DNA of 58,705 nucleotides from Candidatus Brocadiia bacterium (GTDB lineage Bacteria; Planctomycetota; Brocadiia; SM23-32): NCBI GenBank assembly GCA_046538485.1, contig JBKHIT010000028.1, positions 1-58,705 of the forward strand. Reading direction: 5' to 3'. Positions 8,976 through 53,984 of the stretch are shown one piece after another. The notes under the pieces were generated by a model. That model had not been told where the DNA came from and searched no databases. It worked only from the letters and a program-made list of their open reading frames with translations. The first letter of the stretch is position 1; every line of letters starts with the position of its first letter. Position numbers and translations under genes: made by a program.

Positions 8976-10367
8976 ATGCAGATGAGCGAGAAAACGGAAC
9001 CTCTGAATATCAGCGGGACCTTTCCGCACCTTGGTGTGAAAGCGACGCATTTCCCCGCACGCACGGAAACCGGAATCGGGGCGCTCATGCCGTGGGCGGA
9101 TAGACTCTGGTTTGTGACCTATGTCGCGCATAAAAGCGGAACGGGGGGAGGGACCGGACTCTTTTACATCGATGACGATTTGCAAATACGCAAACACCAC
9201 GAATCGCGCGTCGGGACGTATGCCAACCGCATCATCCACACCGAATCCGATCAGCTGATAATCGGTCCGCATGCGATCGATGCGGAGGGAAATGTGCGCA
9301 CGTTTGAGGATCTGGTGGATGTGCGTCTTACCGCAACAGCCCGACATCTCGACGAGCCGGCGGACATGGTTTACTTTGTCGGGATGGAGGGTGAGTTTTT
9401 TGAAGCCAATGTGCATACGCTCCAGACAAATCATTTGTTTGATCTCTGCGAAGAACTTGATATCAGCGAGCGACCGCATTTCAAGGACGGTTACACGGAT
9501 CACGGACGGGTTGTGGTGGCCAACAACAGCTATTTTCACGGTGATTTTGAGCGCGGGGAGAGCAATGGGCGTCTTGCGGAATGGGACGGTGAACAGTGGA
9601 CTATACTGGCTCGAACACAGTTCAATACTGTAACAGGACGTTGTTCGGGCAGTCTGGGACGGGCGATATATGCGTTCGGGCAGGATCGCGCTTCAGCTCT
9701 TATGTATGTATATTTTCCGGAGACGGGATGGAATTTATACCGGTTGCCGAAAAGTACCAATACACAGGATCATGCCTGGACGACCGAATGGCCGCGGATG
9801 CGGGAAGTGGAATCGGAACGGTGGTTGCTGGATGCCAGCGGGATGTTCTACGAGTTGCCTGCAATGGGGTATCAAAACCAGATTCGCGGGATGGTTCCGA
9901 TCTGCCGGCATCTGCGGATTATTGGGGACTACTGTTCCTGGAACGGTATGCTTGTGATGGCCGGGGACCAGACGACGCCCATCAACGATAGCAATCCGTT
10001 CGTAGGCCAGCCACAGGCGAACCTGTGGTTCGGAAAAACTGACGACCTGTGGGATTTCGGCGGTAAACCATCTGGGTGGGGCGGTCCCTGGTGGGAGGAG
10101 AAGGTCGAGCCTCGCGAGCCGTCGGAGCCGTTTCTGATGAACGGGTTCGATCAAAAATGCCTCCATATTACCCACGAAGGGGGGACGGAAAGCCGGTTCA
10201 CGGTGGAATTGGATTTTCAGGGAACCGGAAAGTGGAACCGTTATGTGGAACTGAAGACCACTGAGGGATACGTCTACCATACCTTCCCACCAGGTCTTGG
10301 CGCTCATTGGGTCCGACTCGTGCCGCATGAGGAGGGGACGGTGACGGCGCAGTTTTTTTATACGTAA
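8976..10367 (+). CDS. Conserved hypothetical protein, probably beta-propeller-rich; co-transcribed with the GH36-like gene
   Basis: 463-aa ORF, AAGGAG RBS, starts 5 nt after the upstream stop. Confidence 0.75.
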   Translation: MQMSEKTEPLNISGTFPHLGVKATHFPARTETGIGALMPWADRLWFVTYVAHKSGTGGGTGLFYIDDDLQIRKHHESRVGTYANRIIHTESDQLIIGPHAIDAEGNVRTFEDLVDVRLTATARHLDEPADMVYFVGMEGEFFEANVHTLQTNHLFDLCEELDISERPHFKDGYTDHGRVVVANNSYFHGDFERGESNGRLAEWDGEQWTILARTQFNTVTGRCSGSLGRAIYAFGQDRASALMYVYFPETGWNLYRLPKSTNTQDHAWTTEWPRMREVESERWLLDASGMFYELPAMGYQNQIRGMVPICRHLRIIGDYCSWNGMLVMAGDQTTPINDSNPFVGQPQANLWFGKTDDLWDFGGKPSGWGGPWWEEKVEPREPSEPFLMNGFDQKCLHITHEGGTESRFTVELDFQGTGKWNRYVELKTTEGYVYHTFPPGLGAHWVRLVPHEEGTVTAQFFYT

Positions 10368-10581
10368 GCTGCTTCGCTACCACAGTGCCCCGGAATTTTA
10401 CGTGCCTTATCCCATTCCCTGAAACCGTGTGCAAGTGTGAGATTTCCCCGCCGCACGGGCGGGGCATCTATGTTGGTGTGTCAGCCGTCGAGTAGGTTGA
10501 AACATAAAGATCCCTACCACGGGGGCGCGGCTGTTCGCTGTTGTCGTTGGAGAAGATGTCACGATATCGCATGCAAGCCGC

Positions 10582-10981
10582 AACGACACAGCGGTGAGTA
10601 AAACGTCCCGTCGGTCCGTTTTAACACACCGCAATCCACAGCGCGCCGTTGGCGCGCGGGACACCACACCGGCCGGTGCCGCCGACATCCCTGGTTTGCG
10701 GGAAATGTCTCGTGGTGCAAGAGGCAACAATTTTGTGGTGGGCCTTCAGCCCACTTTTTTCTCAATGCCCATCTGTACCCAGGCTCCGACGACCTTCAGC
10801 CGTCTGCACCCTGGACTACAATGTTACGCCCTTTCAGGTCGGAACAGCCCCATCCGGTGACCCCGATTGCCGAGAACCAGCCCCGCGGGAGCGGTGCTGA
10901 AGTCCAGTCCGTTCCCGGTTTTGCAGGTTCCAGCCCCTGGACCGGGTTGATAGACCCGGCTGTCGTTGTTTTCAATTTCGG
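10582..10981 (+). repeat. Long composite repeat block, copy 1 (copy 2 at 14127-14452)
   Basis: Closely similar from AACGACACAGCGGTGAGTAAAACGTCCCG through TTCAATTTCGG; contains a family B unit and an extra family A unit. Confidence 0.9.
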
Positions 10982-11072
10982 TGCTTCTTATGTCAAACGG
11001 ATGGGCCGTTTCGGCCTTCGGCCGAACGGCGAAACGGCTTAAGAACGACATTTATAAGGTTTTCAGGGGTTT

Positions 11073-11612
11073 TTAGTTTGCGGGGGGTTTTCGCCCGCAA
11101 ATCGGTTTGAAAACGGCATCCTGGGGTTGTTTGCTCCATTTTGCGTCCTTTTTGGGCTTTGAAATTCCATTCGGGCCTTCCCGAAACGACCCACCGCACG
11201 CGGCCGCCGCGCCGCGGGCGGCGCAGTTGCGGCGGTGAAAAGCTTCATCGTATTCGGTGCGGTTTCGCCAGCTGTTTCGCACCATCCTGGCGTGCACCTC
11301 CGCGTCAACGCGGTCGTCTTTATTGCCGGCGGGATAGTAGATATCTCGGGCTCGGTCGGCGCTGAGGGGATTGAGCGGATAAACTACATAGCCCTCGGAG
11401 CACAAAATATGGGGGAGGATGTCGTTTTTGCGGTCGATTCCTGTTCGCACCTGCTGGGGGTCGGGCTCCAGCTCTTTAATCTGCTCGATCATCTGCTGGG
11501 CGCCTTCTGCGGAGCGCTGCACGGATCCCTTTTTGACAAGGTTCCCATTTTCGGCGAGAATCGCGAATGCATTAGGGCTTTTCTGTCCCCAATCGATACC
11601 GACCTCTAACAT
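11073..11612 (-). pseudogene. IS110 recombinase remnant: RuvC-like DEDD domain fused in frame to the extreme C-terminal tail
   Basis: VGIDWG, GYVVYPLNP and GNKDDRVDA motifs, then directly WRNRTEYDEAFH (typical IS110 C-terminus); coiled-coil and catalytic-Ser Tnp domain absent; AGGAG RBS. Confidence 0.85.
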
Positions 11613-11624
11613 TGGTCATTCTCC

Positions 11625-11864
11625 TGTATTCAGGAGGAAAAAGGGCGCAGAGAGCAAACGGTGGATCTGCCGCCTCGCAAGCAAGTTCTCCTACATCGGC
11701 CCTATCCGCTGTTTTAAGGTGGAGGGGCTTCTTCTGAAGGACACTCTGCGAGGGATCGAAGGTCGGGGGGGCTGACCGAAGTGGCTGTCTTAACCGCAGC
11801 AGAGTGCGGAGGCCCTACCGGCACTCCGGATCCATCGCGCGCGGGGGGCTGCGCAGCCCCCCGC
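11625..11864 (-). ncRNA. Putative IS110 bridge RNA in the left-end non-coding region
   Basis: About 240 nt non-coding upstream of the recombinase; perfect 24-nt palindrome at 11841-11864; AAGAAGCCCCT (11733-11723) matches the predicted donor junction AAGAAGCACCT at 10/11; ATAGG (11705-11701) is complementary to junction CCTAT. Confidence 0.6.
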
Positions 11865-11916
11865 ACAACCTAATGCATAGGGTAGATTGTGTCATTTACA
11901 CAACAGGATAACTGTA

Positions 11917-12089
11917 GGAGTGCGGCGACCGCGAGTCGCGGTGGACTACCTGGAAGTTAGCCCGGGGCTCCGACGACTTTCAGCCGTCTGCACTCCGGGC
12001 TGCTATGTTGGGCCCTTTCAGGGTATGAGACGGCGGAGTGCGCTCGGCGATCGCGCCTGCAAACATGTGGCATCCCGGATACGTGAGGA
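11917..12089 (+). repeat. REP mosaic: families E and B
   Basis: GGAGTGCGGCGACCGCGAGTCGCGGTGGACTAC (also about 14560 and 46170), then a family B unit and a tail similar to about 14757-14885. Confidence 0.8.
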
Positions 12090-12225
12090 TGGATTGGTTG
12101 CCGGGAGTTTTCGCCACCCAGACGCGGCATGGCACGGAGTGGTTTGTCAAGGAGTTGTGGGTCTCCACCGTACGGCGGACAGTGGCGAACCAGCCGTTGG
12201 AAAAAAGTAGGGGAGTCGCGCTCGT

Positions 12226-13743
12226 TCACCCCAGGAAAAGTTGTTTGGTCGCGAACTGCGGGTCGCTGGTGAGATTTACTCCCAGACGGCGCAGTCCGCC
12301 TTCATCGCCCGGGGTTGGAATATGGCTGAGGTGCAGTTCGCATTTCTGGAGATTCTTCAGTTGTTCCAGACACTGTTGTGCGGTGGGGTTTGTGGCGGCG
12401 CTGATGCTCAGGGCGATGAGGGTTTCTTCCAGATCCAGACTGACCGTCCCGGCATCCAGAATGTCTCCCTTGAGCCAACCCACTGACTTGATGACGTTGC
12501 GAGGCAGCAGATCAATATCGTCGGGTATGCCCGCGAGTTTCTTGATCGCATTGAGGACAAGCGCACTTGTGGAATGGAGCAGGGCCGAGTTTTTGCCCGT
12601 TATGATCTCCCCGTCCGGCAGTTCGATCGCAGCGCCGCAAAAAATGCCCTCGTGTCCTTTCCCCTCTGCTTCGGCCTCTTCGGCAGCCCCTCGTGCTTCG
12701 GCAACGACTGGACGTGATTCCGGGCCGATATCGAGTTCTTCCATGAGGACTTTGGTGCGTTTAACGGTCTCTTTGTCGGCGAATCCCATAGCGTATTCGC
12801 AACTGTATCGGAAATAGCGTCGGACGATTTCCTGTTTTGCCGCACGCCGGACCGCTTCGTCGTCCACGATGGCAAACCCAGCCCTGTTGACGCCCATATC
12901 TGTCGGAGACTGATAGGGAGACTCAGCCTCTGTAATGCGTTCGAGAATTCGTTTGAGAACGGGGAAAGCTTCCACGTCGCGGTTGTAATTTATTGCCGTC
13001 TCGTCATATGCTTCCAGATGAAACGGGTCGACCTGGTTGAAGTCGCCCAGGTCCGCGGTCGCGGCCTCATACGCAATATTGACGGGATGTTTGAGGGGGA
13101 GATTCCAGATGGGGAAAGTCTCGAATTTGGCGTATCCCGCTTCCTTGCCGTGTCTGTGGTCGTGATAGAGCATTGTGAGACATGTCGCGAGTTTTCCACT
13201 TCCGGGTCCCGGTGCAGTCACCACAACAAGCGGTTTTTCAGTTTCGATAAAGTCGTTCGAGCCATACCCTTCGTCGCTGACGACTTTATCGACATCGGCC
13301 GGGTAGCCTTTGATATGACTGTGGGTGTATACGTCAACGTCGCGGCGTTCGAGCTTGTTTTTGAAGACTTTGACCGAGGGCTGATTTTCGTAGCGGGTGA
13401 TTACCACCGCGCGCACATCCAGATCCCACTCGCGGATATCGTCGATAAGTTTCAACGCATCGACGTCATAGGTGATCCCGAAATCGGCGCGGAGTTTTTT
13501 TCGTTCGATATCTCCTGCGTAAATACACAGTATAATTTCGGTTTGGTCTTTGATTTTTTGCAGGAGGCGCATTTTGACATTGGGATCGAAACCGGGCAGC
13601 ACGCGGGACGCGTGGTAATCGAACAATAGTTTTCCACCAAATTCGAGGTACAGCTTTTCCCCGGATTCATTGACGCGTTTGAGAATAGCATCGGACTGTT
13701 CGTTGAGATATTTTTCGTTATCAAACCCAACTTCGTGCGGCAT
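12226..13743 (-). CDS. DUF1846 (UPF0371) family protein
   Basis: [28 protein letters not shown]-loop, [11 protein letters not shown] and SPTDMGVN motifs; start set at MPHEVGF behind AAGGA. Confidence 0.92.
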
Positions 13744-13926: not shown

Positions 13927-15040
13927 GTAGACTCGAGTTCAGCTGAGCCCGCCACCGGGGGGGCGAGACTGGACTTGAGGCGGGCAATCCCCGGGAAATA
14001 ACAAAACAAGCAGCAAAGTCCCACCAATCCACGCTGCGTTCTGAACTCCAGCCCCGCAGAGCGGCGCTGAAGTCCAGTCCGCGAGGTGTTGGCCCGTTCA
14101 GAGGGAGAGAGAAGAGATAAAGGCGGAACGACACAGCGGTGAGTAAAACGTCCCGTCGGGCCGTTTTAACACACCGCAATCCACAGCGCGCCGTTGGCGC
14201 GCGGGACTTCGCATGGGCCGGTGCCGCCGACATCCCGTGGTTGCGGGAAATGTCTCGTGGTGCAGGAGGTAACAGTTTTGTGGTGGGCCTTCAGCCCACT
14301 TTTTCCTCAATGGATACCTGTACCCCCAGGGTTCCGACGACCTTCAGCCGTCTGCACCCCGGGCTACTATGTTACGCCCTTTCAGGTCGGAAAAGCCGCT
14401 GGACCGGGTTGATATACCCGGCTGTCGTGGCTGTCGTTGTTTTCAATTTCGGAGTGCGGCGCCTCGGCGCCGCTTTCCCTGCTGTTCGTTTCGGACTGCG
14501 GTGGCTTGCCACCGCTTTGATTGCGTTTCTTCTTTTTCCGTTATGCCGTTGCGTCTTTCGAGTGCGGGCGACCGCGAGTGGCGGTGGACTATCTGGAAGG
14601 AGCTATCCAGATGCAAATAAGTTGCACAAAAACTTGCGCACTTTCCTCCATGAAACCCCCAGCGGGGGCGCCGCTGTGTCGTTATCTTTTTGCTGTTTGT
14701 CTTCTGTCGTTTTGTTGGGGGCCTTCAGCCCACTTTTTTCTCAACGGACACCTGTGCCCCGGGGCTCCGACGACCTTCAGCCGTCTGCACCCTGGGCTGG
14801 TATGTTACGCCCCTTCAGGGCATCAGACGGCAGGGCGCGCTCGGCGATGACGCCCTACGTGTGTGTGGCGTCCGGCATACGGGAGACCGTGGCATGTTGT
14901 GGGAAGTTCCCAGAGTGCGAGAGCTGTAGGTCCGCGTTCTGAACTCCAGCCTCCGGCTGAAGTCCAGTGCGCTGGCGGGGATTGAGACTCGAGTTCAGCT
15001 GAGCCCGCCACCAGGGGGCGAGACTGGACTTGAGGCGGAC
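13927..15040 (+). repeat. About 1.1-kb intergenic mosaic of REP families F, A, B and E, including composite block copy 2
   Basis: F 13927-13985; A 14036-14082; block 14127-14452; E about 14560-14600; B 14710-14820; A 14932-14972; F 14986-15040. Confidence 0.9.
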
Positions 15041-53216: not shown

Positions 53217-53984
53217 ATGCGAAAAGGAAACTTCCGAAAAGCTCTTCTGCGGGGGGACACAACCTTCGGCACGTGGATCCAGATTGGAGATGGGACCGTC
53301 GCTGAAATTCTGGCTGAGGTCGGCTACGACTGGGTGGCTGTGGACTGCGAGCATACTGGAATCGACGTTGAAGGTTTTACGAACATTGCCCGAGCAATGT
53401 TCGGGCGGGGCGTGACACCACTTGTTCGGGTACGGGAGAACGACACTCTCGCGATCCGCCAGGTGCTTGATGCAGGCGCGGAAGGAGTGATCGTGCCTCT
53501 GATCAATACCGCAGACGAGGCGGCCCGAGCTGTGGCTGCTGCCAGATACCCGCCCGAGGGGGTGCGGGGATTCAGTTTTTCACGAATGAACAACTGGGGC
53601 CAGGATTTCGACCGGTACGCCGAAACCGCAAATGAAAATACCGCCGTGATCGTGATGATCGAGTCACAACAGGCCGTGGAAGATATCGAGGATATTCTCG
53701 CCGTGGAAGGTGTGGACGGCGTCTTTATCGGTCCCTATGACATGAGTGGCTCATACGGCGTCCCGGGGCAGACCGACCACCCTGCGGTGAGAGAAGGATG
53801 CCGGAAGGTCGTGACAGCCTGCCAGAACGCCGGCAAAGCCGCCGGGCTTCACGTTGTCCGCCCCGAAGCGGAAAAAATTGAGCGGGCGATAGAAGACGGC
53901 TACACTCTCATCGCACTGGGGGTTGATACGGTTTTCCTGGCCCGGGAGGCCCAAAAAGCCCTGAAAATTGCCCGTCATCGTTAA
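53217..53984 (+). CDS. HpcH/HpaI family aldolase (2-keto-3-deoxy sugar-acid aldolase-like)
   Basis: DCEH, LDAGAEGVIVP, YPPEGVRG, MIES and FIGPYDMS motifs. Confidence 0.93.
   Translation: MRKGNFRKALLRGDTTFGTWIQIGDGTVAEILAEVGYDWVAVDCEHTGIDVEGFTNIARAMFGRGVTPLVRVRENDTLAIRQVLDAGAEGVIVPLINTADEAARAVAAARYPPEGVRGFSFSRMNNWGQDFDRYAETANENTAVIVMIESQQAVEDIEDILAVEGVDGVFIGPYDMSGSYGVPGQTDHPAVREGCRKVVTACQNAGKAAGLHVVRPEAEKIERAIEDGYTLIALGVDTVFLAREAQKALKIARHR

Follow-up and report, generated by a model that had tools for sequence, protein, structure and literature searches.

Positions 11916 to 10982 on the minus strand of the stretch of DNA that we analysed (hereafter the window; 58,705 nt from a Candidatus Brocadiia bacterium) form what, on sequence grounds, is an IS110-family insertion sequence that has become defective. 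It belongs to the IS110 subgroup, whose members have the gene for a non-coding RNA in the left end, ahead of that for the recombinase. Together with a shared CC, the element measures 937 bp. We see in it no more than the usual decay of a known element type; both ends and a candidate bridge RNA gene have been retained (Table 1). Taking the evidence as a whole, we consider it very probable that this is a decayed IS110-subgroup copy that has kept its bridge RNA region, would have worked in the manner of IS621 and survives as a single remnant. The original prediction of a non-autonomous IS110-family derivative with both ends and a non-coding RNA region is therefore borne out in outline. The motifs that it quoted are all present on the minus strand: TTGACA, TAAGAAGCA and CC at the right end (Table 1), CCTATGCATTAGGTT at 11883–11869, AAGAAGCCCCT at 11733–11723 and ATAGG at 11705–11701.

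Table 1 Coordinates of the element's features in the window
Feature	Position	Strand	Basis or remark
Left target flank CCGCACT with left CC core copy (11918–11917)	11917..11925	-	9-mer before 5/5 left ends
Non-coding left end, candidate bridge RNA gene, 304 nt	11613..11916	-	start set by empty-site comparison
TATCCT, candidate -10 box, 17 nt from right-end TTGACA after joining	11905..11910	-	computed junction
GC-rich perfect hairpin, 5′ part of left end	11841..11864	-	self inverted-repeat hit
First stem/internal loop/hairpin module, target-binding-loop equivalent	11753..11833	-	predicted fold
Left target guide candidate CCGCACUCU, 5′ side of first internal loop	11801..11809	-	
Right target guide candidate UUCGG, 3′ side of first internal loop	11776..11780	-	complement of CC-GAA
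Second stem/internal loop/hairpin module, donor-binding-loop equivalent	11673..11753	-	predicted fold
Left donor guide candidate, 5′ side of second loop	11727..11736	-	
Right donor guide candidate UGUAGG, only one found	11690..11695	-	complement of CC-TACA
Truncated recombinase ORF, 179 aa	11073..11612	-	partial PF01548; P0001 comparison
Deletion junction TGGCGAAAC (Trp-Arg-Asn), one short direct repeat copy left	11262..11270	-	
Non-coding right end	10982..11200	-	right-end fragments at C90, C141, C20, C54
Inverted-repeat hairpin in right end	11038–11005	-	
-35 box TTGACA in right end	10996–10991	-	
Right-end tip TAAGAAGCA	10990–10982	-	
Right CC core copy (10981–10980) with right target flank GAAA	10976..10981	-	3/3 right ends then GAAA

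Ends and target site

All five copies of the left end (window, C89, C26, C20 near 4588 and metagenome contig L029) start with TACAGTTATCC (TACAGTT...; window 11916) and lie directly after the 9-mer CCGCACTCC, upstream of which there are at least four different contexts. The three right-end copies (window, C20 near 1029 and C54 near 62365) have a common sequence up to ...AAGAAGCACC; each finishes ...CACC, continues with GAAA and diverges beyond it, so the right end, TTGACA box and CC core proposed originally are real. A motif, TTTGACATAAG, lies 10–11 nt from the right end and recurs in the right ends of C102, C112 and C56. Terminal inverted repeats are absent, and only the short core is repeated on both sides, as in other IS110-family insertions.

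The insertion is precise. It lies in a repeat-borne target, CCGCACT-CC-GAAA, within a cluster of REP-like repeats, consistent with the earlier remark that the right end abuts a REP block, and the CC core is found on both sides; we take CCGCACTCCGAAA as the element's recombination target. The 9-mer CCGCACTCC occurs 106 times in the genome, five times followed by GAAA without an element and four times by the left end. An uninterrupted paralogous site at window position 14459 reads CCGCACTCC-GAAATTGAAAAC... and matches the right flank of the window element for at least 22 nt. One contig from X4, among sequencing runs X1–X4, joins 10978 to 11924 via 9 letters and resembles an uninterrupted repeat unit; its shorter side has only 26 letters and it contains an additional C, which leaves room for a paralogous repeat instead of the empty allele, and it was not counted as support.

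The left boundary had been placed at 11881, but in all five left ends the element starts 35 nt further out, and the stretch 11916–11882 is missing from the empty sites. Position 11881 is the T just past the CC from which that boundary was read; the corresponding CC-TATGCAT belongs to a small hairpin, 35 nt in from the true end. Since the left end is at 11916, the proposed junction promoter, TTGACA-N18-TAGGTT, falls with the inner boundary. What holds at the sequence level is the underlying idea that the -35 box of the right end could meet a -10 box only once the ends are joined: the true ends, joined at a single CC, give TTGACA-N17-TATCCT, which agrees with the consensus at 10 of 12 positions. 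An in-situ promoter scan of the integrated state found no minus-strand promoter-like site upstream of the RNA region. For the paralogue C102 (see below), inspection of the sequence of the joined ends revealed no convincing -10 box at the corresponding distance. Runs X1–X4 consist of assembled DNA contigs, in which circles and transcripts are not visible.

The truncated recombinase gene and its full-length relatives

The ORF of the window copy encodes the N-terminal part of a DEDD (RuvC-like) domain, followed by the last ~20 native codons and a read-through. It matches positions 1–111 of 155 of PF01548 (E 7.8e-16), and the profile search gave no match to Transposase_20 (PF02371), that is, no C-terminal Tnp/serine domain; we conclude that the copy is defective. 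The ORF corresponds to residues 1–117 and 386–406 of a 406-aa IS110-type protein, P0001: it is 96% identical to residues 1–117, and from its residue 118 onward matches P0001 from residue 386. The tripeptide WRN is present twice in P0001, at 115–117 and 383–385, and the gap in the alignment indicates an in-frame loss of 268 codons (804 bp) between two TGGCGAAAC repeats. With these codons went everything from the remainder of the RuvC-like domain, through the linker, to the serine (Tnp) domain.

A collapse of the assembly across the short TGGCGAAAC repeat would produce the same sequence. The full-length protein does indeed show the repeat at both deletion end points, an X1 unitig terminates at 11272, and C90 carries a separate copy of the 3′ part of the element. 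However, the repeat is only ~9–10 nt long, and the junction is bridged, with long sequence on each side, by contigs of X1 (574 nt) and X2 (371 nt; no differences), two lines of support that are not fully independent, X1 being possibly the source sample itself and X2 belonging to the same study. We regard an artefact as extremely unlikely. A contig of X3 continues at the deletion point into full-length sequence that matches L029.

The uncharacterised recombinase to which the original prediction pointed can be given a sequence. P0001 matches PF01548 over positions 1–155 (E 4.7e-28), and its match to Transposase_20 scores 18.4 bits, under the Pfam cut-off of 21.3 bits. It matches the IS621 transposase 8wt6_A with an E-value of 5.8e-6, and aligns to both IS621 and ISCro4 across the serine domain, with the ESG stretch aligned and conserved; we take the serine of ESG to be the nucleophile. 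These alignments place P0001 at some distance from the IS621 transposase, to which it is nevertheless recognisably related.

In the assembly, which is 88% complete and in which repeats, as is common, may have failed to assemble, we found no intact gene for a cognate recombinase. The only intact relatives there are C102, which has different guides, and C75. The C102 paralogue (G000:C102:40867-39161, minus strand, in the same genome) has a complete ORF with 45% protein identity over 402 residues and a Transposase_20 match of 29.3 bits, above the cut-off. A metagenome scan returned one contig, L029, with the left flank and codons 1–325 followed by unrelated sequence, and hence no right end; together with the X3 contig, it indicates that related populations carry the element intact. 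Searches with the N-terminal 117 aa matched three of 61 genomes, this one included, and none of 30 in the same family, the best identity outside this genome being 25%. Across the phylum, P0001 matched 15 of 401 genomes, again including this one; identity elsewhere was at most 33%, and near-full-length matches reached only 26–29%, too distant for element ends to be defined from them. A scan of a genome collection with P0001 detected no relative, and one with an alignment of P0001 and C102 detected only relatives of 26–27% identity, in one MAG, which were left out of the comparisons.

The left-end RNA region and its guide candidates

The 304-nt left end is predicted to fold into two stem/internal-loop/hairpin modules, with a folding z-score of -3.66. 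An Rfam scan of positions 10000–13000 (E up to 1) returned no bridge RNA family and one sub-threshold hit to an unrelated sRNA family. The architecture of the first module is the same in the window, L029 and C102, with folding energies of -30.7, -38.2 and -39.1 kcal/mol, respectively. The second module likewise folds as stem, internal loop and hairpin in the window type and in C102; its GCCC/GGGC inner stem is invariant, and pairing is preserved in the basal and apical stems although their sequences differ. Two mismatches set the window copy apart from L029 and C89, C-A in the stem of the first module and A-C in the apical stem of the second, and both of its modules are weaker than those of L029 by ~7.5–7.8 kcal/mol. 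Short left-end stubs elsewhere in the genome (C26:60607-60717 and C20:4591-4506) stop just past the GC-rich hairpin.

Guide candidates were assigned by the rule described for IS621 (Durrant et al. 2024, PMC11208160), whose RNA has two internal loops with 5′ sides in the same sense as the left target or donor and 3′ sides complementary to the right half plus core; left guides are thus same-sense and right guides complementary, with the core included. Going along the left end, this gave candidates for the left target guide (position 108), the right target guide (137), the left donor guide (184) and the right donor guide (222). The clearest evidence is in the target loop, which the original prediction had missed. 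The left target guide candidate is a same-sense copy of the flank CCGCACTCC, identical at eight of nine positions, of which the ninth would form a U-G wobble with the bottom strand; C89, L029 and the C13 fragment carry the candidate unchanged. The right target guide candidate lies in the same internal loop; in sister copies it reads UUUGG, the pairing being kept by wobble. At the level of sequence, this is the arrangement of a bridge-RNA target loop.

In the donor loop, the right-end tip recurs in the same sense at the place where a left donor guide is expected, as originally proposed. This region holds an exact 7-mer copy of the tip, and because of an AAG repeat its register is ambiguous: it can be read as AAGAAGC (11733–11727), the earlier choice, or as AGAAGAA (11736–11730), the register of the paralogue. 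In the register directly before the GCCC stem, the window matches the right-end tip at six of seven positions. The only candidate for a right donor guide is UGUAGG, which C102 has unchanged although the C102 left end starts differently; the occurrence of this 6-mer is not above chance. Three sequences, UGUAGG, AGGAGAAC and AACUUG, were compared with the left-end start as right donor guides and set aside, none covarying with C102.

The original prediction had instead taken AAGAAGCCCCT and ATAGG as the left and right donor guides. The 11-mer is present in the window with its 10/11 match to the proposed junction, a match that survives only because the true left end also begins with T; in the sister copies (L029, C89 and the X1, X3 and X4 contigs) there is an A at 11724 and the match falls to 9/11. 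Part of the 11-mer lies within the GCCC/GGGC stem, which is conserved in the paralogue. ATAGG belongs to the apical part of the second module, and complements CCTAT rather than the junction. Hence, although its motifs are present, the scheme in which the element ends at 11881, is transcribed from TTGACA-N18-TAGGTT and carries these two donor guides is barely credible: the homology of the five copies starts at 11916, the outer 35 nt are absent from empty sites, and ATAGG pairs with a sequence that is not at the junction.

We compared the guide matches with 5000 mononucleotide shuffles of the 304-nt left end. The exact left-target 8-mer appeared in 97 shuffles, the 7-mer of the right-end tip in 219 and both together in two. 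The right-target 5-mer was found in 2974 of 5000, and the 6-mer of the left-end start in 1267 of 5000, so the right-target and right-donor complements are not significant alone.

The C102 paralogue resembles the window element in the motifs of its RNA scaffold, in carrying TTTGACATAAG near its right end and in its location in dispersed repeats, but has its own guides, its own target and a CT core. Its left target guide, CAGGCAUCA, matches its own flank, CAGGAATCT (CAGGAAT-CT), in the same register, and the CT core of this type is fixed independently by three right ends with a common sequence up to ...GGACGCCT. Its left donor guide, AGGACGA, resembles its own right-end tip, AGGACGC. At the place of the right target guide it has GGCAG, which complements CT-GCC, the flank of the related C56 right end. 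The left donor guide therefore covaries, AGGACG in C102 corresponding to AGAAG/AAGAAG in the window element; the covariation as a whole is based on two lineages only.

These comparisons bear on whether the left end simply serves the recombinase gene as a structured 5′ leader or regulatory region, with flank matches that arose by chance or from repeats. The genome is rich in GC-rich repeats with common short words, the right-target and right-donor matches do not exceed chance, and no Rfam family was hit, all of which would fit a leader. However, the left-target 8-mer and left-donor 7-mer co-occurred in only two of 5000 shuffles, the left guides lie on the 5′ sides of both internal loops in the IS621 order, and in C102 both left guides have changed to follow that element's flank and right end, on a scaffold that is retained. 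We consider a simple leader very unlikely, and interpret the left end as a candidate bridge RNA gene.

Proposed working, relation to known systems and fate

By analogy with IS621, excision of the element as a circle would bring together TTGACA of the right end and TATCCT of the left end to form a promoter, from which a bridge RNA of ~260 nt would be transcribed; its predicted start is a few nt beyond TATCCT and its predicted end is near a hairpin with a U-run at about 11674–11636. The first internal loop of this RNA would read the target, by means of one stretch in the same sense as CCGCACTC(C) and another complementary to CC-GAA, and the second would read the element's own joined ends, through the copy of the right-end tip.

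The published description of IS621 (PMC11208160) gives a recombinase with DEDD and serine domains and a long non-coding left end upstream of its gene. In IS621 and the IS110 subgroup, according to the same source, the promoter is split, with the -35 box in the right end and the -10 box in the left; IS621-type elements are described as having no inverted repeats at their ends and as inserting site-specifically into repeated extragenic sequences. The window element is similar in its type of recombinase (DEDD plus serine, in the full-length form), its candidate left-end RNA, its predicted split promoter, its two predicted loops, its lack of inverted repeats and its site-specific insertion in a repeated sequence. 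It differs in that the protein is distant (E 5.8e-6 to 8wt6_A), 268 codons including the serine domain are gone, and the right donor guide is only a candidate, unlike that of IS621; in addition, the left end is 304 nt long with three extra 5′ hairpins, compared with an IS621 RNA of 177 nt (PMC11208160). The cores also differ, being CC in the window element and CT in C102, and the analysis of target motifs in natural IS110 elements, as reported in PMC11208160, kept only guides with a CT core. The locus thus represents another natural IS110-type system, with a 13-nt target, core and guide positions that can be read straight from the genome, and a single genome contains two cores, CC here and CT in the paralogue. 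A distant recombinase and its RNA scaffold are added as a pair to the catalogue of bridge systems, the known mechanism being unchanged.

The deleted copy could not move by itself, and could be moved only if a cognate full-length recombinase of the P0001 type were supplied. If the copy were still an active miniature element, its bridge-RNA cassette being moved regularly in trans in the manner of a MITE, this would account for the fact that neither end, neither promoter half (-35 and -10) and no part of the RNA region has been lost; an intact form exists in related populations (L029 and the X3 contig), and an X1 contig has the same deletion with three base differences. There is also a precedent in MITEPpu9 of Pseudomonas putida, described as a small-RNA (ssr9) cassette with IS-like flanking ends in eight copies, whose movement is proposed to occur with transposase in trans (PMC12288879). 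MITEPpu9 as described there is, like the window element, non-autonomous and tied to a REP-inserting IS110-family element, ISPpu9; the window element differs in being an internal-deletion derivative at a single locus, with a bridge RNA region and a truncated ORF. The occurrence of one short derivative at several sites, which marks a MITE, was not found in this genome: the stretch 11505–11273 with the deletion junction occurs once, other copies being different fragments, and no second site with the deleted form was seen. Moreover, the assembly has no intact cognate gene, and the RNA stems are weakened. We therefore judge an active miniature element unlikely.

A related possibility is that the copy is a working bridge-RNA cassette moved by a sibling recombinase, or that the 179-aa DEDD-only protein and the RNA damp an intact element, in which case they would compete for the RNA or ends of that element. 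Either would mean a natural bridge RNA travelling without its recombinase, but we think both decidedly improbable. Most likely, the copy is not a miniature element that propagates but a lone remnant in slow decay, because there is one deletion locus in the genome, many other fragments are present, and the RNA stems are destabilised relative to sister copies. The assembly is rich in fragments of the same element, including right-end pieces, left-end stubs and the C13 fragment, and the window copy illustrates the decay of an IS110 element by deletion between short repeats, leaving solo ends.

Boundaries and target site

We set the boundaries of the element, which lies on the minus strand, by comparing copies with and without it. 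Five copies (the window, contigs C89, C26 and C20 (near 4588) of the source genome, and a sister copy on metagenome contig L029) carry CCGCACTCC and then TACAGTTATCC at the left end, and the DNA upstream of them represents at least four different contexts. At the right end, the window, C20 (near 1029) and C54 (near 62365) read ...AAGAAGCACC, continue with GAAA and then diverge. An empty site at window position 14459 (minus strand) reads CCGCACTCC-GAAATTGAAAACAACGACAGCC, which is the target 9-mer fused to the window's own right flank, and two more empty sites, on C18 and C21, match the C20 right flank. Because the left-end copies, right-end copies and empty sites agree, we place the element and the CC core on either side of it as listed in the table, and the target is CCGCACT-CC-GAAA. 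The target 9-mer has 106 copies in the genome, followed mostly by ACAG, ATAG or AGAG (51 together), by GAAA in five cases and by TACA, the left end, in four. All motifs quoted in the original prediction are found in the sequence, and its right end and CC core are correct, given that the three right ends stop alike before GAAA; its left end was set 35 nt too far in, since five copies begin right after CCGCACTCC at 11916.

Features of the element and its neighbours in the window
Feature	Position	Strand	Basis or remark
Element	11916-10982	minus	copies with and without the element
CC core, both sides	11918-11917 and 10981-10980	minus	copies with and without the element
ORF, 179 aa	11612-11073	minus	single meaningful minus-strand ORF between both flanking genes
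Deletion junction, one remaining TGGCGAAAC	11270-11262	minus	short repeat at both deletion end points (protein level, P0001)
Left target guide candidate CCGCACUCU, loop 1 5′ side	11809-11801	minus	8/9 identical to flank CCGCACTCC; ninth would be a wobble
Right target guide candidate UUCGG, loop 1 3′ side	11780-11776	minus	complement of CC-GAA
Left donor guide candidate AAGAAGC, loop 2 5′ side	11733-11727	minus	exact 7-mer of right-end tip
Right donor guide candidate UGUAGG, loop 2 3′ side	11695-11690	minus	complement of CC-TACA
Neighbour ORF, 463 aa	8976-10367	plus	next to repeat cluster
DUF1846 protein gene, other neighbour	starts 13878

Recombinase ORF and internal deletion

In a Pfam domain search the 179-aa ORF aligned with positions 1-111 of the 155-position profile PF01548 (E 7.8e-16), which describes the N-terminal DEDD domain of IS110 transposases, and showed no Transposase_20 part. 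A search for longer proteins returned a full-length relative of 406 aa, P0001, which is 96% identical to residues 1-117 of the window ORF. After Trp-Arg-Asn at 115-117 the window ORF resumes with P0001 residues 386 onward (BLASTP), and Trp-Arg-Asn occurs twice in P0001, at 115-117 and 383-385. Given this rejoining at residue 386 and the repeated tripeptide, the window copy lacks 268 codons (804 bp), in frame; it measures 937 bp, against about 1741 bp expected for an intact element. P0001 matches PF01548 completely (4.7e-28) and Transposase_20 weakly (18.4 bits, under the 21.3-bit cut-off), and its C-terminal domain aligns with the IS621 transposase (8wt6_A, E 5.8e-6) and ISCro4 (9t56_A), with the ESG stretch conserved.

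Assembled contigs of public sequencing runs cross the deletion junction in two cases: a 574-nt contig of run X1 with three differences and a 371-nt contig of run X2 with none, although X1 is possibly the source sample and X2 belongs to the same study, so that their support is not fully independent. A 734-nt contig of run X3 departs from the window exactly at the junction and continues into L029's sequence beyond codon 117. We conclude that the internal deletion is real.

RNA region, candidate guides and candidate junction promoter

Compared with its shuffles, the 304-nt left end has a more stable predicted fold (z -3.66). The predicted fold has three 5′ hairpins and then two modules of stem, internal loop and hairpin (left-end positions 84-164 and 164-244), and the same two-module fold is predicted for the window, L029, C89 and the C102 paralogue. 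According to the account of IS110 bridge RNAs in PMC11208160, both left guides, for target and donor, base-pair with the bottom strand and consequently resemble the top strand, both right guides base-pair with the top strand, and the core is part of all four guides. The four candidates in the table were compared with 5000 mononucleotide shuffles of the left end. The left target 8-mer was reached in 97 shuffles and the right-end tip 7-mer in 219, with both together in two; the right target 5-mer was reached in 2974 and the left-end start 6-mer in 1267. It is only their position that argues for the two right-hand guides, because shuffles reach these matches so often. An AAG repeat allows two registers for the window's left donor guide candidate. 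The 11-mer donor guide proposed originally contains the exact 7-mer of the tip; its register runs into the conserved GCCC stem, and in the sister copies the match falls to 9/11.

The sole informative relative for covariation is the intact paralogue on C102 (45% identity). Its RNA scaffold is kept (GCCGGnAGGGCCUC stem entry, GCCC/GGGC stem, AGGGCCnUUGUAGGA), and in both modules the basal and apical stems have a sequence different from the window type, with pairing retained in the predicted fold. In the same register as the window's left target guide, C102 has CAGGCAUCA, against its own left flank CAGGAAT-CT; the CT core is fixed independently, since the right ends of C102, C112 and C56 are alike up to ...GGACGCCT and differ beyond it. 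At the place of the left donor guide candidate, immediately ahead of the GCCC stem, C102 has AGGACGA against its own right-end tip AGGACGC. GGCAG, on the 3′ side of its loop 1, is a perfect complement of CT-GCC in the C56 flank and a partial one of its own flank CT-GTG. UGUAGG is unchanged in C102 despite the different left-end start, so that it stays no more than a candidate for the right donor guide.

The C102 paralogue (G000:C102:40867-39161; 402 aa aligned, Transposase_20 above cut-off) carries guides of its own, and its insertion site belongs to a different dispersed repeat family, whose empty copies read ...AATTT/GTGAGTTGAG. Right-end fragments related to it lie at C112:37474-37686 and C56:16330-16399.

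For the integrated state, a promoter scan picked up nothing promoter-like on the minus strand. Joining the ends at CC gives TTGACA (10996-10991), 17 nt and TATCCT (11910-11905), with 10/12 consensus positions, and we regard TTGACA-N17-TATCCT as a candidate junction promoter; the N18-TAGGTT promoter first suggested presupposes the incorrect left end. TTTGACATAAG, the -35 motif at 10-11 nt from the end, recurs in the right ends of the C102 paralogue, C112 and C56, and by our own reading the C102 sequence lacks a convincing -10 box at the corresponding position.

State of the copy and its surroundings

Compared with L029 and C89, changes in the window open one pair in the loop-1 stem and one in the loop-2 apical stem, and its modules are weaker than those of L029 by 7.5 and 7.8 kcal/mol in predicted folds. 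The segment 11505-11273 and the deletion junction each occur once in the genome. Other pieces of the element comprise a left end plus some 100 nt of ORF in C89, right-end pieces in C90, C141, C20 and C54, a C-terminal fragment, 65% identical, in C43, and two stubs of about 75-85 nt (G000:C26:60631-60717 and G000:C20:4588-4506) with only the left-end start, directly after CCGCACTCC. An intact cognate recombinase gene was not found in the assembly (88% complete), where the only intact relatives are those on C102 and, more distant, C75. Because of the single-locus deletion, the weakened stems, the many other fragments and the missing cognate gene, we read the window copy as a probable non-autonomous remnant whose structure may still be recognisable by a cognate enzyme.

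By architecture the element is, like IS621, an IS110-subgroup bridge system, but with a distantly related protein, a longer left end and a CC core. PMC12288879 already describes a non-autonomous unit linked to an IS110-family element, MITEPpu9 of ISPpu9. Among the papers listed by a full-text literature search on IS110 and miniature or non-autonomous elements, none concerns an internally deleted IS110 copy that retains its bridge RNA, and we do not claim that none is in print. The main value of the element is one more decodable natural guide/target pair.

Both stubs stop just past a GC-rich hairpin (window 11864-11841). They resemble adjacent deletions more than insertions, because the C26 stub stands in place of about 60 nt of host repeat. 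The C90 piece (G000:C90:9786-9997; locus L003 1501-1712) lies upstream of a TolC-like gene and matches window 11272-11061 at 98% identity; it begins at most 2 nt from the window deletion junction (GC-TGGCGAAACC common) and lacks the last ~80 nt of the right end. Two segments on C13 (G000:C13:52166-52047 and 53314-53508) comprise an orphan first-RNA-module fragment, 88% identical, with the same left target guide, and, ~1.1 kb off on the same strand, a Transposase_20 fragment from a further gene of IS110 type. L029 (Ga0207797_1034960, 1312-2031) matches the intact element to codon 325 and then has AT-richer DNA with unrelated membrane-protein-like ORFs, so that it represents a truncated copy or else a chimeric contig.

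Dispersed repeats occur throughout the genome, and the element region is a mosaic of them (236 blast rows). Around the element (window 10700-10981 and 11917-12100), dispersed repeats of at least four families are clustered, with units of ~130-140 nt in dozens of copies, one of ~40 nt that ends in CCGCACTCC and one of ~42 nt at 10918-10877 with >80 blast rows. A Pfam search at E 0.001 gave no match for the neighbouring 463-aa ORF. Many repeat units consist of a GC-rich hairpin and then GCA(C/G)TCC(G/A)AAA, with 26 such sites in the genome, and a paralogous cluster with the same unit order lies 2.5 kb away at 14245-14900.
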